Shown: one piece after another, positions 8,798-53,916 of the stretch
How positions within the stretch are numbered: the stretch's first letter is position 1
Layout: every line of letters begins with the position of its first letter
Virus record (IMG/VR): IMGVR_UViG_3300036981_000286
Location: 1 to 64,000 of that record
Strand: one strand, 5' to 3'
Source: a virus
DNA length: 64,000 nt
The notes under the pieces: model-generated
The model's input: only the letters and a program-made list of their open reading frames with translations
Databases searched by the model: none
Told to the model about the DNA's origin: nothing
Program-made: the position numbers and the translations under genes

Positions 8798-8891
8798 CAG
8801 CCGTCGCGCCTCTTTTCGATAAACTGTAAGTTAACGCCGGGGGATACTATGCACATTTTATAACGCAGCACTCAGCCGCAAGGAGGCGAAC

Positions 8892-9725
8892 ATGCGACGC
8901 GTCAATCTATTGCTATCTTTAATTTTGGGTATTACGTTTCTACTACCAACCCCAAGTTACTCAGGCACTCGCGACCCCAACACTCCAGACACTAAATATC
9001 TTGTTTATGGCGCAAAATTTAATTGCGTCGCTCGCGTGCAGGCTGTCTACCCCCGCAAAACTGGCCGCACAACGGCTTTTGCGTCTGCTGTACTTATACG
9101 GCCTAATTGGGCAATCACAGCCGCGCACGTGCTACATGAGTCTAACGAAGCTGCGCTAATGCTTGACGACGGCCGTACGGTGCCGGTTGCAAAGCAGATT
9201 ATTCACGCAGACTACACACCAGAGCCGCAGATTTTGGGCCTGCACGACATAGCGCTGTGTTATATTGCCGATGATATGAAATTAGCGTTTTATCCAGAGC
9301 TCTATAAAGACTTTGACGAGCAAGACCAGATTTGCAGCTTAGCCGGCTATGGCTCAAACGGCACATTCTTGACGGGCCCAAACGCCGATGACGAAAAACG
9401 CCGCGCTGGAAGCAATAAAGTAGAGCTTGCCCGCGGACCTGCGCTTATTCTTACGCCTAGCCAGCAAAACCGAACTGAGCTTGAGTACTTAATTTGCTCA
9501 GGAGACTCAGGCGGCGGGCTTTTTCTTGGTAACAAATTAGCCGGTATTCACTCGTTTGTCATGTGTGAGATCGGAAAAAAACCTGACAGCCGGTATCATA
9601 CAGAATCCGGCCATACGCGCGTGAGCCTGTACTACGACTGGATTAACGCGCAAATCGAGCTGCATGAGCTCACCATTCAAAGCCGGTTAACGCTGAGTCC
9701 TACCCTCCCCACACTAGAAAAATAG
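8892..9725 (+). CDS. Secreted trypsin-like (S1) serine protease
   Basis: Signal peptide; triad motifs TAAHV, HDIAL, GDSGGG. Confidence 0.9.
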   Translation: MRRVNLLLSLILGITFLLPTPSYSGTRDPNTPDTKYLVYGAKFNCVARVQAVYPRKTGRTTAFASAVLIRPNWAITAAHVLHESNEAALMLDDGRTVPVAKQIIHADYTPEPQILGLHDIALCYIADDMKLAFYPELYKDFDEQDQICSLAGYGSNGTFLTGPNADDEKRRAGSNKVELARGPALILTPSQQNRTELEYLICSGDSGGGLFLGNKLAGIHSFVMCEIGKKPDSRYHTESGHTRVSLYYDWINAQIELHELTIQSRLTLSPTLPTLEK

Positions 9726-9729
9726 ACTT

Positions 9730-9978
9730 ATGGAAAGCCTTGCCTTATTAGTTGTATGGTTATTTATTCTCACCCACCTGTGCGGCCCGTTGGCGCTGGT
9801 TTTATCATTTAGCACGTATTGGCTGAATTTATGGCTAGCGGTACTTATTGGCTGTTTAGCTGTTTTTTTAGGCGTGCACTGGTTTACCGGGGTTTACACG
9901 TGGCCGCGCTATCTTGGGTTAATTTCGGCTGGATTTGGTATATTTGCAGTTTACAAGGCAATAAAGAAACTGTTTTAG
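9730..9978 (+). CDS. Small multi-pass membrane protein
   Basis: Three hydrophobic helices. Confidence 0.65.
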   Translation: MESLALLVVWLFILTHLCGPLALVLSFSTYWLNLWLAVLIGCLAVFLGVHWFTGVYTWPRYLGLISAGFGIFAVYKAIKKLF

Positions 9979-9987
9979 GGCCGGACA

Positions 9988-10212
9988 ATGCCCGACGCAA
10001 AATCATATTTGGCCATTTGCTACCGGCCGCCGCGTGCAGATAGCGCAGGCGGTTACGTGATGATGCCGGTTGATACATGTGATCCAGATGACGTTTTTAT
10101 GCAATTAGAGTCGCGTTTTGGCGGAGAACTGTGGTCGTGGCCAATTATTGTTAAAAATGGCGGCACACACCCCGAAGCTGTAAATCACAGTACAGAAAAC
10201 AAATTAACGTAA
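9988..10212 (+). CDS. Hypothetical protein
   Basis: Fills the gap between neighbours with tight spacing. Confidence 0.55.
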   Translation: MPDAKSYLAICYRPPRADSAGGYVMMPVDTCDPDDVFMQLESRFGGELWSWPIIVKNGGTHPEAVNHSTENKLT

Positions 10213-10213
10213 C

Positions 10214-13198: not shown

Positions 13199-13292
13199 GA
13201 AGGAGGCCGTTTCAGTAAAATAGCTCTACCCCCAAAGTACATACTGTGCGACACTGACTAACCGCAAAGACTGCGGGATAAGGAGCCAAGGA

Positions 13293-13640
13293 ATGGCCAA
13301 TTTCAAGACTTATAGAAACCTGATTAAGGCGCTTCGGGCGGCGGTACCTGCCGCATACCCCATATCAGTTCGCCGCGTAAAATTAAATAAAAAACTTGAG
13401 GGTCGCTGCTGGAAACACGGTAAAAAATTTCTTATTCAAATTGACACCTCGCTGGACGAAGCCCGCGCCATGGATGTGTTAGTTCATGAGTGGGCACACG
13501 CGCGAGCGTGGAACCACATGCTCGACGCCGCACCCACCGACGAGCTGTTCAATAAGCTTGCGCATGACCCGGCGTGGGGCGTTGCATACAGCGAGGTGTA
13601 CTCGGCGTACGAACGTAGTTTTATGCAGTCTGTACTATGA
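13293..13640 (+). CDS. Small HExxH zinc-metalloprotease-like protein
   Basis: VLVHEWAH plus downstream H(DPAW), SprT-like layout. Confidence 0.65.
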   Translation: MANFKTYRNLIKALRAAVPAAYPISVRRVKLNKKLEGRCWKHGKKFLIQIDTSLDEARAMDVLVHEWAHARAWNHMLDAAPTDELFNKLAHDPAWGVAYSEVYSAYERSFMQSVL

Positions 13641-13885
13641 AAGACTTTGACCCGCAGACTGCGTTTACTATTTTTTGCGTGTACGTTGTAATTGATGTAC
13701 TCTACGCATGGTATATTATTGCTGTAAACAACCGGCAGCCGGTCGTTGCGGCAATGATGACGTCGGGGATTTACACGTTGGCCGCGCTTGGCGTTATGAC
13801 GTACTCAAGAAACCCAGTTTATATCTTACCGCTAGCCGCCGGCGCATTTCTTGGAACGTATCTTGTGGTCAAATTTAAAAAATGA
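13637..13885 (+). CDS. Small membrane protein
   Basis: Three hydrophobic segments; ATGA overlap with upstream gene. Confidence 0.7.
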   Translation: MKDFDPQTAFTIFCVYVVIDVLYAWYIIAVNNRQPVVAAMMTSGIYTLAALGVMTYSRNPVYILPLAAGAFLGTYLVVKFKK

Positions 13886-14528: not shown

Positions 14529-14535
14529 GTTTGTT

Positions 14536-14643
14536 ATGTGCCCGCTGTGTTGCGTAAAAGCTATTGAAATTAGGGGCAAATTAATCTGCCCAAAATGCCA
14601 TATGATTTTAGAGACCTGCTGTGAAGGCGGGCGTTGCGGTTAG
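14536..14643 (+). CDS. 35-aa zinc-ribbon microprotein, absent from ORF track
   Basis: MCPLCCVKAIEIRGKLICPKCHMILETCCEGGRCG; two CxxC motifs plus CC. Confidence 0.55.
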   Translation: MCPLCCVKAIEIRGKLICPKCHMILETCCEGGRCG

Positions 14644-15309: not shown

Positions 15310-15726
15310 GTGGGCGCCAACCAAAAACGGTTTGTAGTTAACGCTGAGCAACGCGTATACGTTGAAAAGAAGTGGGGCTACGAGGATTGGATTTGGAACG
15401 GGCGCTATTGCGGCAAAAAGCTGTTTATTGAAAAAAGCAAAGAGTGCAGCTTTCACTACCACAAAGTTAAAGACGAGGTGATGTATCTAGAGCGCGGCAA
15501 AGTGCTTCTAACCTACGGATGGGACGAAGACGTAAACGCCGCCGCACAGTTGATACTGATGCCTGATATGGCCTTCCATATTCCGCCGGGAATGTGGCAC
15601 AAGTTTCATGGGCTTGAAGAATCGATGATGTTTGAGTTCAGCACGCACCACAGCGACAAGGACGTCGTTCGTGCTGGCCAGCCAGACAAGGATGTACCAA
15701 ATGCCGCAGAAGAAATTAGCGACTGA
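15310..15726 (+). CDS. Cupin (sugar-isomerase-type) protein
   Basis: KKWGYEDWI, SFHYHKVKDE, HIPPGMWHKF. Confidence 0.8.
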   Translation: MGANQKRFVVNAEQRVYVEKKWGYEDWIWNGRYCGKKLFIEKSKECSFHYHKVKDEVMYLERGKVLLTYGWDEDVNAAAQLILMPDMAFHIPPGMWHKFHGLEESMMFEFSTHHSDKDVVRAGQPDKDVPNAAEEISD

Positions 15727-18550: not shown

Positions 18551-18590
18551 TGTATCGCGCAATAGCTAATACTTAAAACAAGGACGTTTT

Positions 18591-19322
18591 ATGGCTAAGT
18601 CCAAACGATCAGCGTACAAATCGAGCCGCGGCGCACAACGAAAAACTACACGACAAGAAAAAAAGGAAAAAACGCAGCAAGCTATTATTGCGCCAATAGA
18701 AGTTAAGCCGCGCACTAAAGCGCAGCATGAAGCGCTAAAGTTAATTGAGAAAAATCACATTACGTTTTTGCTCGGCTCAGCTGGTTCCGGCAAAACGTTT
18801 CTAGCGATGGCGTACGCTATTAATGAGATTCTTGCGGGCACGCGTAACAAGATCGTGCTCACGCGACCTATCGTCGAGGCCGGCGAGAAACTAGGGTTTC
18901 TTCCGGGCACGTTTGGCGACAAGGTAAACCCGTACATGCAACCGCTGTACGACACAATGGATTTGCTTCTGGGCAAGCAATCCGCTGCCCGAGAGTTTGT
19001 TAATCGATCTATTATGTTGGCGCCGTTGTGCTACATGCGGGGCCGTACATTCCACGACGCCGTCTGTATCTTCGACGAAGCGCAAAACGCGACGTACACG
19101 CAATTAAAGCTGTTTCTCAGCCGTTTTGGCGATAATACCAAAGTGATCGTAACAGGTGACCCTGAACAAAGCGATCTATTTGATAAAGCGCATTACGACT
19201 ATTGTGCGTTAAGTGAAGTTCAGAAAAGACTGCAGGAATTAGACGGGGTAGGCATGATGGAGTTCGCCAACAGTGACGTTGTGCGCCATCCGCTAATTAC
19301 GCAGATTTTGAACCGCCTCTAG
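18591..19322 (+). CDS. phoH: PhoH family ATPase
   Basis: GSAGSGKT, TRPIVEAGEKLGFLPG, MRGRTF, DEAQN, GDPEQSD, VVRHPL. Confidence 0.95.
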   Translation: MAKSKRSAYKSSRGAQRKTTRQEKKEKTQQAIIAPIEVKPRTKAQHEALKLIEKNHITFLLGSAGSGKTFLAMAYAINEILAGTRNKIVLTRPIVEAGEKLGFLPGTFGDKVNPYMQPLYDTMDLLLGKQSAAREFVNRSIMLAPLCYMRGRTFHDAVCIFDEAQNATYTQLKLFLSRFGDNTKVIVTGDPEQSDLFDKAHYDYCALSEVQKRLQELDGVGMMEFANSDVVRHPLITQILNRL

Positions 19323-20134: not shown

Positions 20135-20221
20135 GGATGGGTGGCAGAGTGGTTTAATGCACCGGTCTTGAAAACCGATGAACTTTAACTTGTTCCGGGG
20201 GTTCGAATCCCTCCCCATCCG
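20135..20221 (+). tRNA. trnS: tRNA-Ser(TGA)
   Basis: Acceptor ggatggg/cccatcc, anticodon loop cttgaaa, long variable arm, T-loop gttcgaatc; CCA not encoded. Confidence 0.95.
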
Positions 20222-20282
20222 CATAGGTTGCGTTATTTTCTGTGTGCTTGTAAATTGACTGTACCTTTAAAGGAGCTTTTTT

Positions 20283-23548: not shown

Positions 23549-23634
23549 TTTCTAAACCGCTGCTTAAAAGGTTAAATTGATATTAGCGGTTAGTTTGATC
23601 TAGCCGCGCCTACAGCACTGAAAGGACTCAGTGT

Positions 23635-24261
23635 ATGGAAAAGCGCTGGCATTATGTTTACGTTATTTTGTATCCCGCGTTGGACTACAAATTTTATTAC
23701 GGGTCACGCATAACCGACGTGAGCCCAGCGGCGGACGTTGAGTATTTTGGCTCATTAGTCACGTTCGCGCACTACAACGACGTAAAGGACGCTGAATATC
23801 AGGCAGACGCCTTAAAAGTCGTGCTGCACGCGGAGTACAGGGCTGTTTCCCGCACTAGTTTGCGGCGGCTTGCGGTGCGGGAAAATACGCTAATTAAAGA
23901 AGCATTGGAAGCCAGCCACGTCGGGCCTGCAGTCTGTATAAATCGCAATATTGGCGGTCGCATATACGCGACAACGGACGAGCGACGGCAGTGGGGCGCG
24001 CTTGGCGGTAAAAAGGCGGCAGCCTCGTGCTTAGGCGCTCACGCGCTTGTTTATGACCACAGAGGGCAACCGCAAAAACTTGGCGCAGCCATGGCGCAAG
24101 CGCAACAATCCAAAACTTTTAAATTTTTGGATCCAACTGGTAATACGCAGACCGTGCACAATTTAAGAGAATTTTGCCGCGAAAATAACTTAGACCAAGC
24201 CCACATGTGCTGCGTGCATCGCGGCTCGCGAAAAAGCCACAAAGGATGGTCTAAACCATGA
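23635..24261 (+). CDS. Homing-endonuclease-like protein (GIY-YIG variant + NUMOD-type DNA-binding tail)
   Basis: YVY...FYYGSR...YFGS N-terminus; FLDPTG...NLREFCRENNL...KSHKGW C-terminus. Confidence 0.65.
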   Translation: MEKRWHYVYVILYPALDYKFYYGSRITDVSPAADVEYFGSLVTFAHYNDVKDAEYQADALKVVLHAEYRAVSRTSLRRLAVRENTLIKEALEASHVGPAVCINRNIGGRIYATTDERRQWGALGGKKAAASCLGAHALVYDHRGQPQKLGAAMAQAQQSKTFKFLDPTGNTQTVHNLREFCRENNLDQAHMCCVHRGSRKSHKGWSKP

Positions 24262-24567: not shown

Positions 24568-25572
24568 ATGGCAAAAGGTTTAGACGTTGGTACATCGTTC
24601 ATTGTCCTCGCGAAAGACGGCGCAGAGGGCAACGTGGACTACAAAGACTTTCGCGACGCGTTTTACGCAATTAAGCCGACCACGCCAGTCGCTACCAAAA
24701 TGATTGAAAAGGGGCTTGCCGGCAAAGTATTCGTAAAAGACGAGGACGGTACCTTTATTCTGCTCGGGCAGGACGCAATCGAGAAAGCCGTTGAGCGCAA
24801 TGACTCGGCTAAGCGCCCGATGTACCGCGGCGTTGTTAGCCCTAAAGAAAAAGACGCAAAACGCGTATTAGCTTTTATTCTGCAAGAAGTCGTGGGCAAA
24901 GCCGACGAGGCGGACGAAAAGATCGTGTTCTGTATTCCGGCGCAACCCGTGGATCAAGAAGACACAGATTTTGACGTTGGGTACCACGAAGACGTCGTTA
25001 AGCTTATTTTGTCTGGGGCCGGCTATCTTGCGCGGGCTATTAACGAAGCTGAGGCGCTGTGCTACTCAGAATTTGAAAACGACGATTACACCGGTATTGG
25101 CTTATCCTTCGGCGCCGGTATGGTAAATGTATGCGTAATGCTTAGCGGCGAGCCTACTGTGATGTTTTCGACAACCAAATCCGGCGACTGGGTTGATCGA
25201 ATGTCGGCCGTGGCTGTTAACGAGCCTGATAGCGTTGTGCAGGCGGAAAAAGAGCACGGCGTGTTTCAAGTAGGCGAGCCAAACGAAAATCACATTTTGG
25301 CTGCTGTGTCGGCGTATTACGACCGACTGATTGACTACACCACAAAGCAACTTGCCGCGGCGCTAACCGGGCACAAGTCACTACCAAAGTTTAAAGATCC
25401 GCTACCTATTGCCGTAGCGGGCGGAACATCAAAAGCTGCAGGTTTTGTTAAATTATTTGCCGAAAAACTGGCTGCAAATGGGTTCCCGCTGGCCGTTAAA
25501 GAAGTTAGGCATGCAGCGGATCCGCTTCACGCAGTTGCCAGAGGCTGTTTGATTGCCGCGAAAATTTTGTAA
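24568..25572 (+). CDS. Actin-like ATPase (MreB/MamK/ParM superfamily)
   Basis: GLDVGTS (phosphate 1), INEAEA (connect 1), SFGAGMVN (phosphate 2), VAGGTS (adenosine), DPLHAVARG (connect 2). Confidence 0.85.
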   Translation: MAKGLDVGTSFIVLAKDGAEGNVDYKDFRDAFYAIKPTTPVATKMIEKGLAGKVFVKDEDGTFILLGQDAIEKAVERNDSAKRPMYRGVVSPKEKDAKRVLAFILQEVVGKADEADEKIVFCIPAQPVDQEDTDFDVGYHEDVVKLILSGAGYLARAINEAEALCYSEFENDDYTGIGLSFGAGMVNVCVMLSGEPTVMFSTTKSGDWVDRMSAVAVNEPDSVVQAEKEHGVFQVGEPNENHILAAVSAYYDRLIDYTTKQLAAALTGHKSLPKFKDPLPIAVAGGTSKAAGFVKLFAEKLAANGFPLAVKEVRHAADPLHAVARGCLIAAKIL

Positions 25573-25591
25573 ATTTCTGTTAAACTTAACG

Positions 25592-25811
25592 TGTTGTAAG
25601 TTAGTCGTGGTGGCCGACTGGTTAGGGAAGCAGCTCGTACAACAGGGATGTTTTACGGGCTGACAGGAATCCGTGGTCAGGCTTTGGCCGCGCTCACGGT
25701 TGGTGGAGCAATGAATGCCGCACGAGGTTGAGTTTACGCCTTAGAAAGTCATTGCATGCCTCGTTTCGACGAGGTCCGGGCCTGTGGAGGGGATCACAGG
25801 AGCTTACAACA
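25592..25811 (+). ncRNA. Candidate ~220-nt structured, GGA-rich small RNA
   Basis: 11-bp closing stem 25592-25602/25801-25811 enclosing several hairpins, including aac-agggat-gtt and cctcgt-ttcg-acgagg. Confidence 0.55.
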
Positions 25812-25851
25812 AATACACACACAAATTTTACATAACTTACTAGGTAGCAAC

Positions 25852-26202
25852 GTGTTAGACGAATATTTTCATTCGTTAGCTGTGTTTGCCAGCGCATTCG
25901 GGGTCGCGGCCTTTGCCGGGCTAGCGACATTTTTGCGTTTCGCCCGAAAACTCTCTAAACTGGCGTTAATAAGCGCGATGTTAAACGCCGGGTTTCTCGG
26001 CCTAGCCGTCGCACTTTTGTGGTATCAAAACTACCGAAACGCCGAAAATGTAAGTGGCTTAATTGGGATATGCGTATTAGCGGGTATGGGCGGATCAACT
26101 GTTACTGACATTTTAATTTCTATCCTGTCTGGCGCTGGAATTAAAGTAATTATTCACCACGAGCGAGATCGCGATGACACACTCCGTAACGATGACGCTT
26201 GA
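25852..26202 (+). CDS. Holin-like three-TM membrane protein
   Basis: Three TM helices, GMGG motif, charged C-terminus; GTG 25852 preferred because the track's extension overlaps the RNA candidate. Confidence 0.55.
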   Translation: MLDEYFHSLAVFASAFGVAAFAGLATFLRFARKLSKLALISAMLNAGFLGLAVALLWYQNYRNAENVSGLIGICVLAGMGGSTVTDILISILSGAGIKVIIHHERDRDDTLRNDDA

Positions 26203-26359: not shown

Positions 26360-26431
26360 TGCCCGATGGCGCAACGGTAGCGCGGAGCACTGTTAATGCT
26401 TAGGTTCTAGGTTCGAATCCTAGTCGGGCAG
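26360..26431 (+). tRNA. trnN: tRNA-Asn(GTT)
   Basis: Acceptor tgcccga/tcgggca, anticodon stem gagca/tgctt with loop ctgttaa, T-arm ctagg-ttcgaat-cctag. Confidence 0.95.
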
Positions 26432-26436
26432 CTGGA

Positions 26437-30570: not shown

Positions 30571-30594
30571 ATAACACTTGCAAGGAAGCAAATC

Positions 30595-36377: not shown

Positions 36378-39300
36378 ATGCCACTTCCCGAACAGTCAAA
36401 CTCGATCCTAGGACCGCAGACCCGAGAATTCGGCGACGTTAACGCGTTACGTCAAAATATCTTTCAGCAATCGCAGCAGTCTGCAATTGGCGTAGCGCCG
36501 TTCGAGCCCGTTTTTACTCGAGAAGATATTTTTAATACTGCGGCTACTCAAGCCCGCGGTATTAAACCGGTCCAGAATGATCTGTATACGCTCAGCCTCG
36601 GCGATGTGGGTTACGAAGGCCCCGAGCGGTTTACAAAAAAAGATCACAAGCAAGCTGTGCTTTCTCACGGCTCCCTCGCGCGAAAGCTGCGCGGTACGTG
36701 GAACCTGACTGACAATAAAACGGGAACTGTTATCGCTCAGAAGCGGTCAACGTTGGCTAACGTGCCGTACATGACCGACGCTGGTACGTTTGTGCATAAC
36801 GGCGTGGAATATACGCTGGCCCATCAGATGCGACTTCGCCCGGGCGTATACACCCGCGAAAAAGACAACGGCGAACTTGAAGCGCATGTAAATGTGCTCC
36901 CCGGAAAAGGTCGAATGCACCGATATTATCTTGACCCCAAAACGGGTGTATTCAAGATCAATATCGGACAGGCGCAAATTCCGCTTATGCCGCTGCTCAA
37001 AGCGCTCGGCACTTCGGAGCAAGATATTCGCAAGGCGTGGGGCAACGAGCTTACCGCCGTGAATATGGAAAAGGGCGACGCCGGCACGCTAGACAAGCTG
37101 TACAGCCGGCTTGTCTACAAAGCCATACCCGGAATTGACGCCCCGGGAAAACAAAAAGCCATCGCCGACGAGTTTTTAAAAATGGAGATGGATCCCGAGG
37201 TGACAAAGCGCACGCTTGGCGAGCCTATCAAAAATTTAACGCCTGACGCCATTCTCAAGATCACGAAGAAGCTGATTGCCGTAAACCGGAAAGAGACCGA
37301 ATCAGACGACCGCGACAGCATGGCTTTTCAACAAGTTCTTGGCCCTGAAGATTTAATTGCTGAGCGCTTCTCAAAAGATAGGGCCATGCTGCGGCAATTG
37401 CTATGGAAAGCCACGGCAAAGAAAACACTCGATCATGTACCGACTGGTGCGTTTAACAAAGCGATCGTGGCTGCGCTTATTGGTAGCGGTCTCGGGTCTA
37501 GTCTTGAGGAAATCAACCCGGCGGAAATTTACGACCACCAAACGCGGGTTACCAGATTAGGCGAGGGTGGCATTGGCTCGCTTGACGCCGTGCCGCAAGA
37601 ATCGCGCAGCGTGCAGCCGAGTCACTTCGGGTTTGTAGATTATCTCCGCACGCCGGAGTCTGGAAAAGTCGGCGTGGACATGCGGTTCGCCCGCGGAGCA
37701 GTAAAAGGCTCTGACGGCAAGGTCTACATGAAAGTAAAGAATCTGAAGACAGGCGAGCTTGAGTACAAGTCGCCGCAGGACATTGCTGATATGCCTCTCG
37801 TGTTCCCGGGTGAGGATAAAAGCGACCTCCCGACCGTGGCCGCAATTGTTAACGGCAAGATGAAATACATTCCGCGCGATCAGGCGCAGTACATGGCTCC
37901 AAATATGGATGCGTCATTCTCGACGTTGTCTAACATGGTGCCGCTTAAATCCATGATGAAGGGGCATCGCGTTATCATGGGTTCGCGCATGTTTACGCAG
38001 GCGCTGCCCCTTGTTGGCGCTGAATCGCCGTTTATTCAATCAGCCATTGCCGACGACCCTTCGCGCTCGTACGAAGACGATATGGGCAAGAGCATGGGCG
38101 CCGCATACGCCGACGAGCTTTCGCAAGTTGTATCTGTTACGCCAGACGAGATTGTTTTACGCAATAAAGACGGCGAGCAAAAAACAGTTGAGCTTTACAA
38201 TGACGCGCCGTTTAACCGAAAAACTTTCTGGACACAAACAGCAGCGGTAAAACCCGGCGACACAGTTAAACCCGGCCAGCTTATTGCTCAGTCAAACTTT
38301 ACAGACAAGAACGGCACCGCAGCGCTTGGTTTAAATATGCGCGTGGGTTACTTACCGTTTCGAGGGCTTGTGTACGACGACTCAGTGGTGATATCTGAGT
38401 CGGCAGCAAAGCGCCTGACATCTGAGCACATGTATCAGCACGAAGCCGAATCGGACGACAACACGCACATAGACAAGAAGAAATTTATTAGCTTGTTCCC
38501 GAGTGAGTACGACAAAAAAACTTTAGATAACTTTGACGATAATGGCGTAATTAAAAAAGGCGCTGTTGTCACGTACGGCGACCCGCTTATTCTCGTGAGC
38601 AAAGCGCGAGAAACCACATACGGACAAGTGTTTCGCGGCAAGTCGGCTAACTTCACCAATGACTCTGTTACTTGGGAGCACCACTCGCCGGGCGTTGTTA
38701 CAGACATCGCTAAAACAAAACACGGCTACAGCGCAATTGTTAAAAGCAAAGCCCAAATGGAGGTAGGCGACAAACTTACCGGGCGATTCGGTGACAAGGG
38801 TGTCGTGGCTGGGATTATCGCTGACGATCAAATGCCGCAGGATGCGCAAGGCCGCCCAATGGAGGTGCTTGTCAGCCCGCTTGGTTTAGCCAGCCGAATT
38901 AATCCGTCGCAGATCGTAGAGGCAGCGCTCGGTAAAGTAGCTGAGAAAACTGGGCAGCCGTTCAAAATTAAAGATTTTGACGACCAGACCGACCTTATCG
39001 ATTTTGCTAAAGCAGAATTACGAAAACACCAACTCACAGATCTTGAGGATGTTACTGATCCCGAGACTGGGCGCAAAATTAAAGGCGTGCTTACTGGTAA
39101 TCGTTTTTTCATGAAACTGCACCACACGAGCGAAAGCAAAGCGCAGGGCCGGTCTACTGGCGGATACACGGCTGAGGGCGCGCCAGCCAAGGGCGGGTCC
39201 GAAGGCGCTAAGCGCGTCGGCATGCTCGATCTGGGCGCTTTGCTCTCGCACGGCGCCGGTCAGGTTATTCGTGACGCCAAAATGGTTCGCGGGCAAGCTA

Positions 39301-40826
39301 ATCCGGAATACTGGTCGCAGGTAATGGCGGGCTATACGCCGCCGCTTCCAAAGATTCCGCAAGTTTACACAAAATTCGTTGAGCAGCTTCGGGGCGCAGG
39401 CATTAACACCGTGCGCGAAGGCACAAAGACGCACATCATGGCGTTGACCGACAAAGAAATTGACAAACTCACCGGCGACCGCGAAATACAAAACGCCGAT
39501 ACGGTTGATTGGAAATCTGGCTTGCGGCCTAAAACTGGTGGGCTTTTTGACGAAAGTCTGACCGGTGGCCATAACGGTAATCGCTGGGCTAAGGTCACCC
39601 TGCACGAGCCCATGCCGAATCCGGTTATGGAAGAGCCAATTAGGCGCACTCTTGGGCTTACTGAAAAAAAGTTCAGAGATATCTTAGCCGGCCAAGAGAA
39701 GCTTAACGACGAAACCGGTCCAATGGCTATTAAGAACGCGCTAAAGCGTATTAATGTGCCTAAAGCTATAGAGCAGGCGCGTCAAGATATTCAGTCCGGA
39801 CGCAAGGTCGCCCGGGATGCTGCCGTCCGCCGATTAGCCTTTTTAAAAACCTCAGAAAAAACTGGCACACACCCCGAAGAGTGGATGTTGACCAAGATGC
39901 CGGTAATACCGCCAGCGTTTCGGCCCGTCTCGACGATGGGGCAGAAAAAACTACCGCTCGTTGCCGACGCAAATTATTTGTACAAAGAATTGCTCGACGC
40001 AAACTCTGTATTAAAAGATTCTGCTGGCGTACTTACCGACGTGGGCAACGAACGGCTAGGGCTGTACGACGCAATGAAGGGCGTGACTGGCATGGGCGAC
40101 CCTGTGCAGGCCAAGAACGTCGAGCGGCGTGTGCGCGGCTTTTTATCTCAGATTTTTGGAAGCTCGCCAAAGTACGGCACTGTGCAACGCAAACTTCTCA
40201 GCTCAACTGTGGATCTTGTTGGTCGCGCTGTAATTACACCTAATCCGGATTTGGATATGGATCAGGTCGCCCTCCCCGAAGAAAAAGCGTGGGAAATTTA
40301 TAAGCCGTTTATTGTGCGCGGGCTGGTTCGTCGTGGGTTACCGCGCATGGAAGCAATTAAGTCGTTTGACGACAAAAACAATATGGCTCGCGGTGAATTA
40401 AACCAGCAAATGAGTTCTCGGCCAATTATTATTAATCGCGCTCCGGTACTGCACCGTTACGGCATAATGGCGTTTTATCCGCGCCTTACTAAAAATAAAA
40501 CAATGGAAGTGAGCCCGCTCGTAACCAAGGGTTTCGGCGCTGACTTCGACGGCGACGCCATGCAATTCCATGTGCCGAGCACTGACGCCGCGGGCCGAGA
40601 AGCCGCTGAAAAAATGCTGCCAAGTCGTAATTTATTTGCGGCGTCAACGTTTAAGGGTCATTACACCCCAGTAGCGGAATTACAGTCTGGCCTGTATGTT
40701 GCTTCCAACCGGATTAACAAGAAGTCGCCCACGCGGGTCTTTAAATCCGCTAAAGATGCTATTGCCGCTTATCGGCGTGGCGATATTGAGGTCGACACGC
40801 CGGTGCATATTGTGGAGAATGATTAA
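36378..40826 (+). CDS. rpoBC: DNA-directed RNA polymerase, beta subunit fused to N-terminal part of beta'
   Basis: Beta motifs QMRLRPGVY, RLGEGG, TPESGKVG, GDKLTGRFGDKGV, SPLGLASRIN, MKLHH...GRSTG; beta' motifs PVIPPAFRP, GRAVI, NRAPVLH, catalytic ADFDGD. Confidence 0.95.
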   Translation: MPLPEQSNSILGPQTREFGDVNALRQNIFQQSQQSAIGVAPFEPVFTREDIFNTAATQARGIKPVQNDLYTLSLGDVGYEGPERFTKKDHKQAVLSHGSLARKLRGTWNLTDNKTGTVIAQKRSTLANVPYMTDAGTFVHNGVEYTLAHQMRLRPGVYTREKDNGELEAHVNVLPGKGRMHRYYLDPKTGVFKINIGQAQIPLMPLLKALGTSEQDIRKAWGNELTAVNMEKGDAGTLDKLYSRLVYKAIPGIDAPGKQKAIADEFLKMEMDPEVTKRTLGEPIKNLTPDAILKITKKLIAVNRKETESDDRDSMAFQQVLGPEDLIAERFSKDRAMLRQLLWKATAKKTLDHVPTGAFNKAIVAALIGSGLGSSLEEINPAEIYDHQTRVTRLGEGGIGSLDAVPQESRSVQPSHFGFVDYLRTPESGKVGVDMRFARGAVKGSDGKVYMKVKNLKTGELEYKSPQDIADMPLVFPGEDKSDLPTVAAIVNGKMKYIPRDQAQYMAPNMDASFSTLSNMVPLKSMMKGHRVIMGSRMFTQALPLVGAESPFIQSAIADDPSRSYEDDMGKSMGAAYADELSQVVSVTPDEIVLRNKDGEQKTVELYNDAPFNRKTFWTQTAAVKPGDTVKPGQLIAQSNFTDKNGTAALGLNMRVGYLPFRGLVYDDSVVISESAAKRLTSEHMYQHEAESDDNTHIDKKKFISLFPSEYDKKTLDNFDDNGVIKKGAVVTYGDPLILVSKARETTYGQVFRGKSANFTNDSVTWEHHSPGVVTDIAKTKHGYSAIVKSKAQMEVGDKLTGRFGDKGVVAGIIADDQMPQDAQGRPMEVLVSPLGLASRINPSQIVEAALGKVAEKTGQPFKIKDFDDQTDLIDFAKAELRKHQLTDLEDVTDPETGRKIKGVLTGNRFFMKLHHTSESKAQGRSTGGYTAEGAPAKGGSEGAKRVGMLDLGALLSHGAGQVIRDAKMVRGQANPEYWSQVMAGYTPPLPKIPQVYTKFVEQLRGAGINTVREGTKTHIMALTDKEIDKLTGDREIQNADTVDWKSGLRPKTGGLFDESLTGGHNGNRWAKVTLHEPMPNPVMEEPIRRTLGLTEKKFRDILAGQEKLNDETGPMAIKNALKRINVPKAIEQARQDIQSGRKVARDAAVRRLAFLKTSEKTGTHPEEWMLTKMPVIPPAFRPVSTMGQKKLPLVADANYLYKELLDANSVLKDSAGVLTDVGNERLGLYDAMKGVTGMGDPVQAKNVERRVRGFLSQIFGSSPKYGTVQRKLLSSTVDLVGRAVITPNPDLDMDQVALPEEKAWEIYKPFIVRGLVRRGLPRMEAIKSFDDKNNMARGELNQQMSSRPIIINRAPVLHRYGIMAFYPRLTKNKTMEVSPLVTKGFGADFDGDAMQFHVPSTDAAGREAAEKMLPSRNLFAASTFKGHYTPVAELQSGLYVASNRINKKSPTRVFKSAKDAIAAYRRGDIEVDTPVHIVEND

Positions 40827-41799: not shown

Positions 41800-43680
41800 A
41801 TGTTAAAAACAACGCTTGGCCAACTTCTGATAAACAGCGCGCTCCCGGCGGATATGCGCGACTACAATCGCGTATTAACAAAGAAAAACGTGATTGACCT
41901 CGCTACTGATCTTGCCACGCGGTACCCAGACAAGTACCGCGAGGTGATGAAGCAGATGCAAGACATCGGCTCTGAAACCGCGTACACGACAAACGGCATG
42001 TCTGTTGGCTTAGACGCAATCACGCCGTCGATTGCCGCGCGAAAAAAGCAGCAGGAAATTAAACAAAAATTGCGCGGCGTGCTGTCCGACGCGCGCCTTG
42101 ACGACAAATCGCGAAACCTCAAAATACTTGAGTTATCGTCGCAGGCTCAAAAAGAACTTATCGACATTGTTTACAAAGACGCTGAAGAGCAAGATAACCC
42201 GCTCTTTCATCAAGTGTCGTCTGGCGTTAAGGGAAATAAATTTCAGCTTAATAGCATTCTTGGCGCCGACATGCAGTACGTAGATCACCGCAACGAGCCA
42301 ATTCCAATTCCGGTGATGCACGGCTACAGTCAGGGCTTGCGTCCTGTAGAGTATTTTGCCGGAGCGTTCGGCACGCGCAAAGGTTTGATGGACTTAAAAA
42401 CCGCAACATCTGACGCTGGCTTTTTTGCCAAACAGTTAACGCAAATGAATCACAGGTTGCTTGTTACGTCTGACGATGAGGATCAGCCTGAGTTACTAGC
42501 CGGCGCCGATAATCGCGGCTTTCCGTCGGACGTTGACGATGTAGATAACGAAGGGGCGCTATTGGCCAGAGCCTCAGGTCCGTACAAACGGAACACGGTG
42601 CTTACGCCAAAAATCTTAAAAGACCTAAAGCAACTTGGCATCAAAGACATACTTGTGCGTAGCCCCACGGTAGGCGGCCCGGCGGATGGCGGTGTGTACT
42701 CTAGAGACGTTGGGTATCGCGAAAAGAACCGGCTACCGCCGATTGGTGATTATGTCGGAATCGCCGCCGCCCAAGCATTAGCTGAGCCGGTCACACAAAG
42801 CCAGATTTCGTCTAAACACTCTGGCGGCGTGGGCGGAGCTGGCGCTATTTCTGGATTTAAAGCTCTTAACGCTTTAGTTCAGGTACCGGAAAAATATCCC
42901 AGCGGGGCCACGCACGCGCAGCTAGACGGCGCGGTACAGGAGATTCGACCAGCGCCACAGGGCGGTCATTACGTCATCGTTGCCGGAAAAGAACATCACG
43001 TTCCAACAGACGTGGCGCTTAAAGTTAAAAAAGGCGATGTACTTGAGGCTGGTGACGTGTTGTCAGAGGGCATGCCCAGCCCGGCCGAAATAGTCAAATA
43101 CAAAGGCGTCGGAGAGGGTCGCCGTTACTTCGTACAGGCCATGAAGCAGGTACTCGGTAATAGCGGAATCACAGGACATCGGCGTAACATTGAATTGTTA
43201 TCCCGCGGACTCATTAATCATGTCCGGTTGACCGACGAATACGGCGATTACGTGCCAGACGATATCGTGCCGTATTCTATGCTGGAGCGGTCATGGCAGC
43301 CGAGAACCGGCAGCGTCCACGGTAACCCAAAAAGCCTAACTGGACATTATTTAGAAAAGCCGGTGCTGCATTACTCAATTGGCACTAAAATTGGCAAATC
43401 TGTTTTAGACAACTTTGACAAATACGGCATCAAAGACATTGAAGCCCACAAAGAGCCGCCGCCGTTTGAGCCCGAGATGGTGCGGGGTATGGCAAGCGCT
43501 ACTACAGACCCGGACTGGATGACGCGCATGATGGGCTCGTATCAGCAAAAAAGCTTATTAAACGCTACACACCGCGGTGGCGTGAGTGACACGGCTGGCA
43601 GCAGTTTTGTGCCTACTTTAGCCCGCGGAGAGACGTTTGGCCTGTCGGGCGCGACTGCCGGATGGCAATCGCAACCATAA
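41800..43680 (+). CDS. rpoC: DNA-directed RNA polymerase beta' C-terminal part
   Basis: KTTLGQ, SSGVKG, bridge helix GLRPVEYF...GTRKGLMD...TSDAGF, trigger loop GIAAAQALAEPVTQSQISSKHSGG, RRNIELL. Confidence 0.92.
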   Translation: MLKTTLGQLLINSALPADMRDYNRVLTKKNVIDLATDLATRYPDKYREVMKQMQDIGSETAYTTNGMSVGLDAITPSIAARKKQQEIKQKLRGVLSDARLDDKSRNLKILELSSQAQKELIDIVYKDAEEQDNPLFHQVSSGVKGNKFQLNSILGADMQYVDHRNEPIPIPVMHGYSQGLRPVEYFAGAFGTRKGLMDLKTATSDAGFFAKQLTQMNHRLLVTSDDEDQPELLAGADNRGFPSDVDDVDNEGALLARASGPYKRNTVLTPKILKDLKQLGIKDILVRSPTVGGPADGGVYSRDVGYREKNRLPPIGDYVGIAAAQALAEPVTQSQISSKHSGGVGGAGAISGFKALNALVQVPEKYPSGATHAQLDGAVQEIRPAPQGGHYVIVAGKEHHVPTDVALKVKKGDVLEAGDVLSEGMPSPAEIVKYKGVGEGRRYFVQAMKQVLGNSGITGHRRNIELLSRGLINHVRLTDEYGDYVPDDIVPYSMLERSWQPRTGSVHGNPKSLTGHYLEKPVLHYSIGTKIGKSVLDNFDKYGIKDIEAHKEPPPFEPEMVRGMASATTDPDWMTRMMGSYQQKSLLNATHRGGVSDTAGSSFVPTLARGETFGLSGATAGWQSQP

Positions 43681-43761
43681 AACAGTGGATCGCAAAGTCA
43701 AATACAGGTAAATTATCAGTTATCTGTTTCCGAATAGCGCAAATGCCGCATGGAGGTGGCT

Positions 43762-46164
43762 GTGTACAACAAAAAAAGTAACAAACCCGCTTGGAAGCAA
43801 CAGCTCGAGAAGTTGGGGCAATACTCCCGCTCGAATGTTAAGTACGCGGCGTTAGGCGGCAACGGTGACGACACCCCGTTTGAGCAGGCATTTAGCAACT
43901 TAGCTCACGCTTACCTGCAAGACAAAGCTCCCGGCTTACTTGACCACGAAGTCGGCTTCCAGCTCCTTGACCGCAATAACGAAAATACCAAGGCTGTTGG
44001 TGTTTTTGCGTTTAAGCTCGGGACGATGTGGCTGTACGCGCCGATGTTCTTTTTAAACGGCGACTTAAAGGGCCACGAACTACTGTACCTGAAAAATCAG
44101 GACATGTTTGTACCGCTCAAAGAAAACTGGATTAATTATCTAGTTAACCGAAAACCCGGTATTCTTGGTCACGGCGTCGACCGCAGCCTTTCCCGGCTCG
44201 GCCAACGGCAGCCTGACTTTACGCAGCTTAGCCGCTCGCCGTCTAAGTTCGGTTCGGCAAACCCGACGCTTAAAGAAATGATCACAGAAGCCATGCCGGC
44301 GTTTGCAAAAGCTGCAACGCTGAACACCTCCGCCGCATTTCAAGAAATCAGCGTGAGCCTCGATCTGGGTACTTTTTTAAAGTCGGCTCGGCTTGAGACA
44401 CTCGACTTCCTCGTTAAGGCTTGTCAGCGCGCGCCGCAACTGGCGTCGGCTATTGAGCAGTTTCACGGGCTCAATATTATCAAAGAAGCAATTGACGCGG
44501 CCAAGATTCGTGAAAACGCGCCAAAAATCGCCAGCATTGTGTCAGAGGCGCCTGAGAAGCCAAAGGCTCTCAAGGGCTTAAAGATCGTAACTATGGACGT
44601 AACGATCCAAACAATGCTGCCCCCGGGACACACAGAAGAAGATCAAGAAAAACTTCTTAACGACGGTATTCTTATCGACGATCAGCGCGACCGCGATAAC
44701 GTGGCAATTCCGTATCATATCCAAGTAGATAAGAAGCTTTTCAACCCCACTCAAAGCGGGCTGTACGACATCCTTGTTAAGCCGGGCGACATTGAACGCT
44801 GTTACGTAGCCGCGTATCCGATGGGCGCGGCCAAGCGCGCAGACTTTATTACCGTAGTTCGCGTAGACGGCAAACCGGACTGGGTTAATACCCGCGCGGA
44901 TCAAGTGTTCGCGCTAGCCCGAATTGAAGGCGAAGAGTTTGACAAGTGGTTTGACGCGCTGCCAGAAGCCAATAGCGTGTCCAAGTCTGGCCGCCACATG
45001 GCGATCTGCAAGCGCGGCGACGCAACTGTTCCGTTTCGCGTTATCCGCGAGTACGGCGAATCGGAGTACGGCACGACAAGTTACGAGGCGCATCTTGAAG
45101 ATCACTCGAAATTCCCGCCCAAGGGGCACATTTCACCGTGCTGTTACACCGACCCGCTAAATTACGATAAATGGCGCGACGGCGTGCGCATCCACCTTAA
45201 CGGCAAAAAGGGCGGCAGCTTGCGCTCAAGCATGGGCGACATCTTCGTCCCCGAGGGCTACAAGCTGCTCAAAGTCAGCAAGGGGGCGGACGACGCTGAG
45301 TCTGCCGATGACCAAGGCGCTTGCGGTTGCGGCGAAAGCGACCAGCCAGCTCTCATGCCCGGAAATCTTATTGACGCGCAGCTTTGCTTAATGAGCAAAA
45401 CGGCTTCGCTAGAGCTAACGCATAACGGCACGGAAGTCGAAATAAATGGCGGAAAGAAACTTTCCGAAAAACAAGCGTTGGTAAATCTGCTTGTTGAACA
45501 TCATCTGCGAGAAGACGCCGCCCGTGAAATTTTAACTCGGGCTGCCTCGTCCCGTAAGTTCTCTTGCCGGCTTAAGCTAGCAGCTGATCCGTATGGCGGC
45601 CCGATGATGATTAACGGCGCGCCCAGTGCGCCCACTATGCCGTCACCGGTAATGGGCGGCGAGTTTGTCATGGGTACAAATGTGCCCACGCAACTCGGTA
45701 TTGATCAGGGCGTACCGGTTCCCGACATGCTTGCTCTTAATACGGACCGCAGCGTTTACAACCCAAACCCGATGTACGACAAGGGCGTGCTGGGCTCCGG
45801 AACTGACCAAGAACTGCAACGCGTTCTTGACGCGGCGCAGTCTGGCCAAAAAGAAGTATTTGATACGGCTATGATCGGCAGCATGTTACGCGCCGTGCGT
45901 GACGACTCGCTCGTGGATCGCTACATGGGCGACTTAACCAAGGGGTTAGATAAGCTCGGCCGTATCTTGTTTATGTTCTATTGGCACGGCGACCGATTCG
46001 CTGACCGCTACGGCAAGAGCGACATGCCCGAACTTGAAGACTCGCTGCGTAACGCGTTTGAAATGCTCGGCGATGTTATTCTCTTCCTGAAGCAGAAGAC
46101 GATCGACCCGAACCCGAACAATAGCGCGCAGGATATCGACCTGAGCGCCGTAGCTAACTCGTAA
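43762..46164 (+). CDS. Large putative virion protein of unknown function
   Basis: ~800 aa; KYAA, KAAT, KSAR, KTAS, KLAA motifs; GTG 43762 follows a GGAGG SD (track ATG 43750). Confidence 0.75.
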   Translation: MYNKKSNKPAWKQQLEKLGQYSRSNVKYAALGGNGDDTPFEQAFSNLAHAYLQDKAPGLLDHEVGFQLLDRNNENTKAVGVFAFKLGTMWLYAPMFFLNGDLKGHELLYLKNQDMFVPLKENWINYLVNRKPGILGHGVDRSLSRLGQRQPDFTQLSRSPSKFGSANPTLKEMITEAMPAFAKAATLNTSAAFQEISVSLDLGTFLKSARLETLDFLVKACQRAPQLASAIEQFHGLNIIKEAIDAAKIRENAPKIASIVSEAPEKPKALKGLKIVTMDVTIQTMLPPGHTEEDQEKLLNDGILIDDQRDRDNVAIPYHIQVDKKLFNPTQSGLYDILVKPGDIERCYVAAYPMGAAKRADFITVVRVDGKPDWVNTRADQVFALARIEGEEFDKWFDALPEANSVSKSGRHMAICKRGDATVPFRVIREYGESEYGTTSYEAHLEDHSKFPPKGHISPCCYTDPLNYDKWRDGVRIHLNGKKGGSLRSSMGDIFVPEGYKLLKVSKGADDAESADDQGACGCGESDQPALMPGNLIDAQLCLMSKTASLELTHNGTEVEINGGKKLSEKQALVNLLVEHHLREDAAREILTRAASSRKFSCRLKLAADPYGGPMMINGAPSAPTMPSPVMGGEFVMGTNVPTQLGIDQGVPVPDMLALNTDRSVYNPNPMYDKGVLGSGTDQELQRVLDAAQSGQKEVFDTAMIGSMLRAVRDDSLVDRYMGDLTKGLDKLGRILFMFYWHGDRFADRYGKSDMPELEDSLRNAFEMLGDVILFLKQKTIDPNPNNSAQDIDLSAVANS

Positions 46165-48837: not shown

Positions 48838-48844
48838 GGACGTT

Positions 48845-50020: not shown

Positions 50021-50021
50021 C

Positions 50022-51497: not shown

Positions 51498-51539
51498 CAA
51501 ACGCCGACATAAAATGTGCGGTGTACAAAGGAGACAACT

Positions 51540-52829
51540 ATGGCACGGATGCAACGTTCGCTCTTCGCGCAACTAAACGCGCTGGCTGAAGAAATTTCTC
51601 AGAACGCGGAAAAGGTCGCGGCTGCTAAGCAAGCCTCGCCGGTTCCCGCTGACCCGGGTGGGTATCAGGGCGCATCGACGCACCCCAGCGCGCACGTTGA
51701 TAACGATGTGCAGAAGGCGACGACGGGCGCTCGTGCATCTGAGTACGAGGCGGACGTTAAGAAGCAGCAGGGCGCGCTCGCTGTAGATAACACACCTGAG
51801 ATGTCGCAGGAAGGTCGTCAGGATGATGTTCAATTAAACATCAACACCAACGCCGCTGCGACAGGCGAAGATCCGGCCGCTGAAAAAGATTACAAGGGTA
51901 CGAAAGACGACCCGGGTACATCGCATCCCGCCAAGACCAACGACGGCGAGAAGTACAGCCACGTATCGTTTAAAGAAGCTCACACCAAGTGCAGCAATCT
52001 TGGTAACGAGATTCTGGCTGACCTCGTCAACTTCGGAACAGCTACTTTTAAAAAGGCTGAAAAAGACGTTGCCGAAGCGGTGACAGGAAAAAAAGACAAT
52101 AGCGGCAATTTAAAGGGCAACCAAAACAAGCTCGACGTCGATAAGGACGGCAAGCTCGAGGGTTCCGACTTTGCCGCGCTGCGTAATAACGACAAGGCTG
52201 CCGCTTTTTCGGCCGGCTACGAGTTAGCCGCTGCGCTTGGTATGGATAAGGCTGCGGCCGAGGCCAGTGTCCGCGACGTATGCGCGAACACGCTGCGCGA
52301 AGCTGACGAAATGGCTGATCTGTTCGTTGGGTTCTACACAGCGAAGCAGGCTGACGACGCCGCCGCTGAAGAAGGCGAAGATCACGCCGAAGAAGGCGAA
52401 TCCGAGGGCGGCGAAGAAGCGCCAGCTGTTAGCGTTGAAGAAATGATGGGCGGCGGGGCCCCGGCCGGTGAGCCCGGACTTGAGCAGGCTCCTCCGTCGG
52501 AAGACGAGGCGCTGCAAGAGCTGGCGATGGCGTTACAAGAACTAGGCATTCCGCCGGAAGCGCTGCTGCAGGGTCTTGCGGGCGAGGCCGGCGGCGAGGG
52601 AGCGATGGCTCCTGAAATGGCCCCCGAGATGGCTCCTGAGATGGCTCCTGAGATGGCTCCTGAAATGGCCCCGAAGATGGCGGCCGCTCGAGAGCTGCAA
52701 ATGATCGGTAACGCTGTTATTAACTTTCAGAGTTCCGGTAATTTTCAAGTCAAAGAGGCTCGCACCAAGCGGTCGCGCCATCTGCGAGATATCATGAAAG
52801 ATCATGTGCGCGAACTCGTTGGTCGCTGA
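51540..52829 (+). CDS. Scaffold-like acidic head protein
   Basis: Between protease and capsid; acidic/helical; KQAS, KAAA, KQAD, KMAA; GNQNKLDVDKDGKLEGSDF EF-hand-like motif. Confidence 0.6.
   Translation: MARMQRSLFAQLNALAEEISQNAEKVAAAKQASPVPADPGGYQGASTHPSAHVDNDVQKATTGARASEYEADVKKQQGALAVDNTPEMSQEGRQDDVQLNINTNAAATGEDPAAEKDYKGTKDDPGTSHPAKTNDGEKYSHVSFKEAHTKCSNLGNEILADLVNFGTATFKKAEKDVAEAVTGKKDNSGNLKGNQNKLDVDKDGKLEGSDFAALRNNDKAAAFSAGYELAAALGMDKAAAEASVRDVCANTLREADEMADLFVGFYTAKQADDAAAEEGEDHAEEGESEGGEEAPAVSVEEMMGGGAPAGEPGLEQAPPSEDEALQELAMALQELGIPPEALLQGLAGEAGGEGAMAPEMAPEMAPEMAPEMAPEMAPKMAAARELQMIGNAVINFQSSGNFQVKEARTKRSRHLRDIMKDHVRELVGR
52605..52676 (+). repeat. 12-bp tandem repeat x6 (MAPE x5 + MAPK)
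   Basis: atggcYccNRaR units in frame. Confidence 0.9.
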
Positions 52830-52847
52830 ACTTAAACGGAGGTTTCC

Positions 52848-53270
52848 ATGCCTGATACGAATCAGTTAGTTCAAAAAGTCATCGACTACATCGGTTTTTC
52901 CGATGCCGCGATGAGCAAGGCTGCGTCGGTGCTCGCTAATCGCGACGCGCAGCAAGAGAAGATTGCTCAGTTAATTCCCGAGGCTGTGAAGGCGTGCACT
53001 GAAAACGAGCGCATCGAATCGCACCAGAAGGAAGCGCTGGCCGCTGCTCTGCAAGACCCAGTTCGCGCTATGGAACTGGTCATTAAGTTAGCGTCGCACA
53101 AGAATGCCGCCGAAATGGCCCGCATTGGTGCGCCGATAACGCAGAAGTCAGCTGGATATGATCCGAATACCAGCGTCACAAGCTCGTACGTGGGAGCTCG
53201 TGACGGCAAGCTCAGGGCAAGTGACATTAAGTTGTTCACAGGTCTTGGTCTTAATCCGCCCACGAGTTGA
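52848..53270 (+). CDS. Head-associated helical protein
   Basis: KAAS, EKIA, KLAS, QKSAG; located in capsid operon. Confidence 0.65.
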   Translation: MPDTNQLVQKVIDYIGFSDAAMSKAASVLANRDAQQEKIAQLIPEAVKACTENERIESHQKEALAAALQDPVRAMELVIKLASHKNAAEMARIGAPITQKSAGYDPNTSVTSSYVGARDGKLRASDIKLFTGLGLNPPTS

Positions 53271-53316
53271 TTTCTAATACGTTACTTCACCACCAATAAG
53301 ACACGGAGGTCTTACA

Positions 53317-53877
53317 ATGGCTGTTTCTCCTGATCTTCCTTTCGAACATGGCCTTGATATCAAAAAGGGCTGGTTCGACATGGCGTCGCTCGACTACTCG
53401 GCTAAGCTGGGTAGTGTCAGCTTCGTAGTCCCCCGCGGCCGAGTTGTGCATCTCGAGGTTGTCGGCGGCGCAGAAGTGTTTCTGCCCGGCGTACGCAACA
53501 CCGACGTTGCAATCTTCCTGCTGAATGGCTCGTCCGATGCCGATGTGTCCAACCCGGGCACAACTGCGTCTGGTCGGTTTATGCATCAGGCGATCTCGCC
53601 GTCTGGCAAGTTGTCTGGCGTAGTTGCGACTGGCGGTTACGAAATTGACTCGACCGAGTTCAACGCCAATCTGTCGTACGCCCCCGGCGATCTTCTGACG
53701 GCACCGACTGGCACCTCTGCTGGCTCTGTTGCTACAGCCGGTGTTCTTACGAACGCTTCTGTCACTGTATACGTCACGCCGGTCGTCGGCGTCGTATCGA
53801 GCGGCAAGCATGTCAACCACAACGGCGTTGATACTCTCTCCTTTTGGAGCGTTTATCTCCCCGGCACTGCGGAATAA
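53317..53877 (+). CDS. Putative capsid decoration/cement protein
   Basis: Immediately upstream of the capsid gene; YAPGDLLT...G.L...VVGVV pattern. Confidence 0.55.
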   Translation: MAVSPDLPFEHGLDIKKGWFDMASLDYSAKLGSVSFVVPRGRVVHLEVVGGAEVFLPGVRNTDVAIFLLNGSSDADVSNPGTTASGRFMHQAISPSGKLSGVVATGGYEIDSTEFNANLSYAPGDLLTAPTGTSAGSVATAGVLTNASVTVYVTPVVGVVSSGKHVNHNGVDTLSFWSVYLPGTAE

Positions 53878-53916
53878 CTAACTCTTTAACTTCACCGGAA
53901 CACGGAGGTTCCAACA

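Follow-up and report, generated by a model that had tools for sequence, protein, structure and literature searches.

The RNA sites of the CsrA/RsmA family have been defined both by selection and by structure. SELEX experiments yielded the consensus RUACARGGAUGU for CsrA, 44 of the 55 ligands in this set having six-nucleotide loops closed by AC...GU, mostly on stems of four or fewer pairs, and the optimum reported for RsmE is (A/U)CANGGANG(U/A), with ANGGAN hexaloops in its nuclear magnetic resonance structures (PMC6849547, PMC7652899). CsrA/RsmA homologues encoded by bacteriophages have also been published (Sobrero and Valverde 2020, PMC7366521; Campa et al. 2021, PMC8450108), and the knock-down of csrA in PTXU04 resulted in small plaques (PMC11879866). 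The action proposed for these proteins is on host mRNAs such as those of CRISPR-Cas, and no targets of the phages' own are named (PMC7366521, PMC8450108, PMC11879866). Here we analyzed the first 64,000 bp of the IMG/VR virus record IMGVR_UViG_3300036981_000286, a stretch referred to below as the window (the entire record has 79,593 bp and is rated 39% complete), in which the Shine-Dalgarno sequence (SD) of several genes, including the capsid gene, lies in the loop of a small ANGGAN hairpin. This phage probably controls the translation of its own genes via CsrA-type hairpins, as judged from the loops, their conservation and the csrA genes of its relatives; the literature searched yielded no account of operators of the CsrA type on the mRNAs of a phage itself.

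The initial annotation of the window had placed the SD of at least eight genes in such loops, and each of the eight strings that it quoted was found at its position. Genes and starts were then called mechanically, and all ANGGAN in which 2-13 nt separate the end of the GGA from a start were scored for the length of the paired run that borders the hexaloop. Six of the eight examples were borne out as hairpins (18575, 23616, 30578, 43745, 53299 and 53897), each with 4-7 contiguous pairs directly at the ANGGAN hexaloop and each corresponding to the minimum-free-energy (MFE) fold of its leader with the GGA in the loop. All are on the plus strand. GGAAC-ACGGAG-GTTCC (53897..53912, 5 bp, MFE fold of -6.3 kcal/mol) ends 5 nt before the ATG at 53917 of the major capsid gene, and TAAGAC-ACGGAG-GTCTTA (53297..53314, 6 bp, MFE fold) precedes the ATG at 53317 of a decoration-like gene. 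GCCGC-ATGGAG-GTGGC (43745..43760, one G-U pair, MFE fold) lies before the gene of an 800-aa protein, whose true start is the GTG at 43762 and not the ATG of the loop, because relatives have ACGGAG or AGGGAG loops devoid of ATG. TTGC-AAGGAA-GCAA (30578..30591, 4 bp, within the MFE fold) is found before a matrixin gene with a peptidoglycan-binding domain (ATG 30595, plus strand; Pfam Peptidase_M10 and PG_binding_1). GCACTGA-AAGGAC-TCAGTGT (23615..23634, seven pairs including one G-U, MFE fold of -13 kcal/mol) abuts the ATG at 23635 of an HNH-endonuclease-like gene (plus strand; PHROG HNH endonuclease). Lastly, the 3′ arm of TAAAAC-AAGGAC-GTTTTA (18574..18591, 6 bp, MFE fold) extends into the ATG at 18591 of phoH (plus strand; Pfam PhoH).

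The two other examples did not stand in the same way. CGC-AAGGAG-GCG (8877..8888, plus strand), before the ATG at 8892 of a trypsin-like protease gene (plus strand; Pfam/PHROG), is marginal: it has 3 bp only, the MFE fold of its leader adopts a shifted register with a 7-nt loop, and the hairpin is missing from the orthologues in the relatives G001 and G003. It is the weakest of the annotated examples and is not conserved. AC-AAGGAT-GT (15686..15695, plus strand) was rejected as a hairpin, being a chance occurrence with 2 bp only whose GGA is paired within another helix in the MFE fold. This string equals the SELEX core ACARGGAUGU as letters only, and the start of its gene is ambiguous (15671, 15692 or 15701).

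Since stems this short next to a common SD word could be picked out by eye, a chance or compositional artefact had to be considered. In its favor, the strings at 15686 and 8877 are at chance level and the fold-energy z-scores of single leaders are not significant, a measure that is uninformative for stems so short. Within the window, stems of at least four pairs were observed at 6 of 25 SD-positioned ANGGAN (18580, 23622, 30582, 43750, 53303 and 53902; three pairs at 8880) and at 2 of 133 ANGGAN located elsewhere on the same strand. Permutation of the 3′ flanks among genes gave 1.1 expected against the 6 observed (p ~1.5e-4), shuffling of the flanks gave 0.37 expected, and a scan of loop lengths 3-9 at all offsets left a single outstanding register, the 6-nt loop starting 2 nt before the GGA. 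All three of these analyses reject an artefact, as do the comparison with ANGGAN inside genes and the covariation described below, and it is scarcely credible. The initial annotation had called for this comparison with shuffled flanks, and the hairpins exceed both the permuted and the shuffled controls.

The analysis was extended to the whole records of related phages, counting SD-positioned GGA in an NNGGAN hexaloop closed by at least four pairs, with the expectation derived from permuted flanks. Seven records carrying csrA were enriched individually, 2.6- to 9-fold with p at most 0.005: G006 (7 observed, 1.1 expected), G001 (9, 2.2), G003 (11, 2.6), G020 (10, 3.8), G004 (32, 3.6), G005 (20, 4.7) and G026 (11, 3.0). 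These seven form the pooled CsrA-positive set used below; an additional csrA-positive record, G028, had 15 hairpins for 3.9 expected (p <0.001). Three records without csrA, which are the most distant relatives (55-60% capsid identity), showed no clear excess, with 1 against 3.8 in G009 (p 0.98), 6 against 3.0 in G030 (p 0.08) and a marginal 7 against 2.9 in G010 (p 0.02); the pooled outgroup gave 14 sites for 9.8 expected. In the CsrA-positive clade, at least four pairs close 19.5% of SD-positioned ANGGAN versus 2.4% of ANGGAN within genes (Fisher 1e-40); the corresponding values in the outgroup are 1.4% and 1.8%. Overall, the SD GGA of ~4-15% of the genes in the clade lies within a C-ANGGAN-G hexaloop on a 4-7 bp stem. 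The simple gene caller misses the capsid gene of the window, where a longer antisense open reading frame (ORF) wins, and is rough in high-GC genomes; these flaws lower the hairpin counts and do not inflate them. The antisense ORF in question (53878-54867, minus strand, 329 aa) covers the whole capsid gene, exceeds it in length and is almost certainly spurious.

The register of these hairpins bears on a second explanation, which involves no protein. The stem could simply keep the GGA single-stranded for the 30S subunit, or fix the initiation rate, and so tune or boost the output of virion proteins, and the occurrence of hairpins on the capsid, decoration and sheath genes, for which a high output is needed, fits this idea. 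Such a presentation of the SD does not predict an exact loop of six nucleotides with GGA at positions 3-5. In the pooled set this register gave 100 sites for 19.4 expected (z=20), whereas z did not exceed 2 for the other loop lengths and offsets, including loops of 5, 7 and 9 nt, barring the same hairpins counted without their closing pair. Moreover, the outgroup phages use strong SDs without hairpins, and the 3′ arm hides the GU of GGAGGU SDs, both of which speak against this explanation.

Examination of the 100 sites revealed a composition matching that of known CsrA and RsmE sites. In 86% of them the loop begins with A, versus 35% at unstructured SDs (Fisher 9e-23), and the second base, next to GGA, shows no enrichment in A. 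C-G closes 65% of the loops and G-C only 4%, resulting in the pattern C-ANGGAN-G, which is optimal for RsmE/CsrA. As an extended SD would favor A beside GGA, the lack of A enrichment at the second position argues against a merely extended SD, and the split A-N-GGA is the signature of CsrA. The same combination of an A at position 1 with a free position 2 is not predicted by a protein-free presentation of the SD. The distance from the end of the GGA to the start codon is 6-11 nt in most hairpin sites, and loop and SD overlap. The CsrA/RsmA-type identity put forward by the initial annotation was supported in its sequence features, namely the ANGGAN hexaloop, the conserved first A, the C-G closure and the short stem over the SD.

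Loops of this kind could also be read by another phage factor. The RegB endoribonuclease of bacteriophage T4 targets GGAG in the SDs of early mRNAs, and many of the loops are ACGGAG, ATGGAG or AAGGAG; an unrelated, clade-restricted RNA-binding protein could be imagined as well, given that Pfam and PHROG leave most genes in these phages without a known function. RegB needs GGAG, whereas at least 21 of the 100 clade hairpins, and three of the six in the window, have loops ending in GGAC, GGAA or GGAT. Conservation falls on A and GGA, as it does in CsrA sites, and the lineage encodes a CsrA with intact RNA-binding residues. RegB sites were thus rejected as the identity of the hairpins, no search for a RegB homologue having been made, and a reader other than a CsrA-family protein appears improbable.

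Orthologous leaders from relatives retained the hairpins and changed their stems. The capsid-leader hairpin is kept in relatives down to ~68% protein identity with differing stems (ggaac/gttcc, agaac/gttct, aagac/gtctt, ggcac/gtgct and cgatc/gatcg). An ungapped alignment of 36 distinct sequences of this leader showed two-sided changes in four of the five pairs and 87.8% of cells paired; none of 500 shuffles and no slid register matched this covariation, and the closing C-G and A.GGAG were invariant. The decoration-gene hairpin covaries likewise among 38 relatives, and across both hairpins four of five pairs were double-changed, 86-88% of cells were paired and 0 of 500 shuffles reached the observed values. 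Stem covariation in related phages, which the initial annotation had named as a check, was accordingly found for the capsid and decoration hairpins. The hairpin of the 800-aa gene is kept in ~35 relatives (variants cagc/gctg and gtcgc/gtgat), and a homologue with 41% identity has a different 6-bp stem. Stems of 3-4 bp and varied sequence occupy the same place before phoH in clade relatives, none being present before phoH of unrelated phages, and the matrixin orthologue of G005 also has a 4-bp hairpin. For the HNH-like gene hairpin (23615..23634) no orthologue was at hand for comparison.

A further feature was observed in decoration leaders. In several relatives (loci L004-L008 and L052), a second small hairpin lies ~25-30 nt upstream of the decoration-gene hairpin, for example CACA-CGGATC-TGTG or GAAC-AGGAT-GTTC, some having GGA in the loop; the window does not contain one.

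The initial annotation had seen no csrA gene in the window, which is correct and is also true of the entire 79.6-kb record, a fragment, when searched with PF02599. It had advised a search beyond the window, and this revealed csrA in the relatives. PF02599 was matched in each of the five complete relatives that were searched first. The closest long relative, G006, also has a match, as do 11 of 12 further near-complete records; among relatives at least 90% complete, 16 of 19 have a match. G006 is colinear with the record of the window and 93.6% identical to it over 70 kb, and its csrA lies ~21 kb past the point corresponding to the end of that record. The encoded protein of 73 aa (L073:1432-1653, minus strand) scores 68 bits against the PF02599 cut-off of 27, covering domain positions 1-51 of 53, with scores of 50-90 bits across the relatives. 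Its alignment with the structures of E. coli CsrA and RsmE (1y00, 2jpp and others) runs from end to end and keeps MLxLxRR and the position of Arg44, a residue that is functionally important in CsrA (PMC7652899). MLVLSR[KR] and the Arg are retained in all CsrAs of the clade. Because tblastn with the G006 protein gave almost no matches, a more canonical clade CsrA was used as the query instead. Judging by domain and residue conservation, the phage lineage encodes a predicted bona fide CsrA. The SD of csrA itself lies in such a hairpin in G004 (tcga-AAGGAG-tcga). The FliW antagonist was looked for in five relatives and was not found in them.

The genomic context and architecture of csrA vary among these phages. 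G004 encodes a tandem CsrA (L067, C1:11238-11729, minus strand) of 163-184 aa, in which PF02599 is matched two to three times within a single frame and which might form a single-chain pseudo-dimer. In the distant CsrA-positive relatives G004, G005 and G026, csrA adjoins a convergent gene homologous to the 2H phosphoesterase-like N-terminal part of the window gene at 26443; in the lineage of the window, csrA occupies another site.

Taken together, these observations make it fairly likely that the hairpins serve a CsrA-family protein as operator sites. A CsrA dimer, supplied by the phage and possibly by the host, would bind the ANGGAN loop. Since loop and SD coincide, the bound dimer would be in competition with the 30S subunit, which could set the timing or the amount of translation. 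Binding, repression and their purpose, whether a delay of virion proteins, dosage control or feedback, are deduced here from the sequences.

Several points weigh against this interpretation. The record of the window, 39% complete, does not itself contain csrA, whose presence is deduced from the 93.6%-identical G006. G027, 84% complete, has no csrA match and yet shows a mild hexaloop excess (8 against 3.0, p 0.01), a result that also suits a protein-free presentation of the SD, and the marginal excess in G010 likewise comes from a record without csrA. G027 may depend on the CsrA of a host, or the missing part of its genome may contain csrA; in this phage (the record of locus L049), the interval at ~94.0-95.1 kb, which corresponds to that between the csrA-flanking genes of G028, is occupied by another gene. 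The association between csrA and hairpins rests on essentially one clade compared with an outgroup and may reflect shared ancestry. In addition, csrA alone does not predict hairpins, since the unrelated csrA-positive temperate phages F116, Vibrio D65 and Dartukuta have no SD hexaloop hairpins. A second GGA at the bridging distance of a CsrA dimer (10-63 nt) was sought, and plain GGA was not enriched within -70..-10 or +13..+66, which again is compatible with a protein-free role; upstream ANGGA was weakly raised in hairpin leaders (0.31 versus 0.21, p 0.036), and CsrA targets with a single site are known (PMC7652899). The SD consensus GGAGG accounts in part for the GGAG and for the 3′ G of the closing pair, as SD presentation would also have it. 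Finally, it seems paradoxical to repress the virion protein made in the largest amounts, except as a form of temporal control. Considering both sides, we regard a protein-free presentation of the SD as rather unlikely, and binding by a CsrA-family protein remains the explanation that we favor.

The distribution of the hairpins among genes was then compared between genome regions. In the relatives, hairpins were found at 23 of 127 orthologues of the 43-79 kb block of the window record, which contains mainly virion genes, versus 3 of 62 for the 1-43 kb part (p 0.013). The sheath-like gene at 59531 (plus strand; Pfam/PHROG) and its neighbor at 62460 have hairpins in several relatives and none in the window, and in G004 an RNA polymerase gene also has one. 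The set of hairpin genes is thus dynamic, centered on structural genes and not limited to them. The initial annotation had pictured CsrA as a post-transcriptional timer; a timer of late genes is only one possible logic, because phoH, the HNH gene and, in relatives, the RNA polymerase gene carry hairpins.

Between the gene at 24568 and tRNA-Asn, an alignment of 13 relatives revealed a conserved structured non-coding RNA of ~220 nt (25590..25815, plus strand). Its stems covary and its indels break the reading frame, a C-AGGGAU-G hexaloop is invariant, and another three GGA are conserved; its fold z-score is only -2.2. In Rfam it matches no family, and no Csr/Rsm RNA families were detected in the window or in G006. 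This RNA could bind CsrA. Its hexaloop and the three other GGA invite comparison with the sponge RNAs CsrB, RsmY and RsmZ; unlike CsrB, it has far fewer sites, contains much conserved sequence needless for a sponge and lacks an Rfam match. Its many other conserved blocks suggest an additional role. A permissive scan for other sponges, based on clusters of GGA-loop hairpins, was too noisy to be used, its top match being a tandem repeat on the minus strand at the end of the record. This repeat (G000 79,300-79,593, past the window) consists of ~42-nt units rich in GCTGGAGCTGGAG, and the assembly therefore probably stopped there. An ORF at 25756-26202 overlaps the structured RNA. Its 3′ part is real, with protein matches in G001 and G003, and the structured RNA covers its annotated ATG in a stretch without conservation of the frame; the true start is probably downstream, for example at the GTG 25852.

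A self-contained Csr circuit can be imagined from these elements, in which the phage's own CsrA would act on operators at 4-15% of its genes, centered on virion genes, and the RNA at 25590-25815 would titrate CsrA and release capsid translation when it is due. We consider this scheme doubtful as a whole. If it were true, it would constitute a viral post-transcriptional timer made from a borrowed bacterial regulator.

With the capsid protein as the query, 64 loci were found to be related; their contigs measure 235 kb at most and several have terminal repeats, which makes the uncultured window phage a jumbo phage of ~200 kb. Its closest cultured relatives are distant, with 27-28% capsid protein identity (Salmonella phage Arash and the Vibrio phages D69, D148 and D181), and the DNA of the capsid region gave no match in the phage collection searched. 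The sequencing runs containing the sequence are metagenomes of sediment, freshwater, runoff and aquaculture. All long ORFs of the window are on the plus strand, with a GC content of ~53%. Among them, a large RNA polymerase beta-like protein of 1482 aa (36378-40826, plus strand), identified by RNA polymerase beta PHROG matches, shares 32% identity with the beta subunit of Salmonella phage Arash. Its 626-aa partner is encoded after it (41800-43680, plus strand), and the phage carries its own multisubunit RNA polymerase. Genes for tRNA-Ser(TGA) (20135-20222, plus strand) and tRNA-Asn(GTT) (26360-26432, plus strand) were also identified. The clade consists of ~200-kb freshwater jumbo phages having their own RNA polymerase and their own csrA, and the hairpins suggest a layer of translational control in such large phages.

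Small elements next to SDs have been described in other phages. The PeSL cassettes of T4-type phages (Arbiol et al. 2010) are terminator stem-loops of the GGGG...CCCC type that lie next to or within a sigma70-like promoter, and the SD is not part of the stem-loop (PMC2839356). With the hairpins described here they have in common that they are small, repeated and close to an SD in the intergenic regions of phages; this identity was rejected, as the loop of the present hairpins is itself the SD and their stems have 4-7 bp of varied sequence. With T4 RegB, the proposed system shares the reading of the purine core of the SD by a phage factor, and it differs from RegB sites by the GGAC or GGAA loops of half of the window hairpins.

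The closest resemblance is to the operators of RsmE on hcnA and of CsrA on glgC, which likewise have an A-N-G-G-A-N loop of six nucleotides, a C-G closure (often AC...GU), a short stem and overlap with the SD. Unlike these, the candidate phage sites are on the virus's own mRNAs, including that of the capsid gene, and number dozens per genome; most phage leaders show one site, not two or more. The protein of the clade is comparable to the published phage CsrA/RsmA homologues, being a PF02599 protein from a phage with conserved RNA-binding residues. In contrast to the published cases, the phage genome itself holds the candidate targets here, and the conserved, covarying CsrA-type hairpins on capsid, decoration, sheath and other mRNAs offer concrete, testable targets for a phage CsrA.

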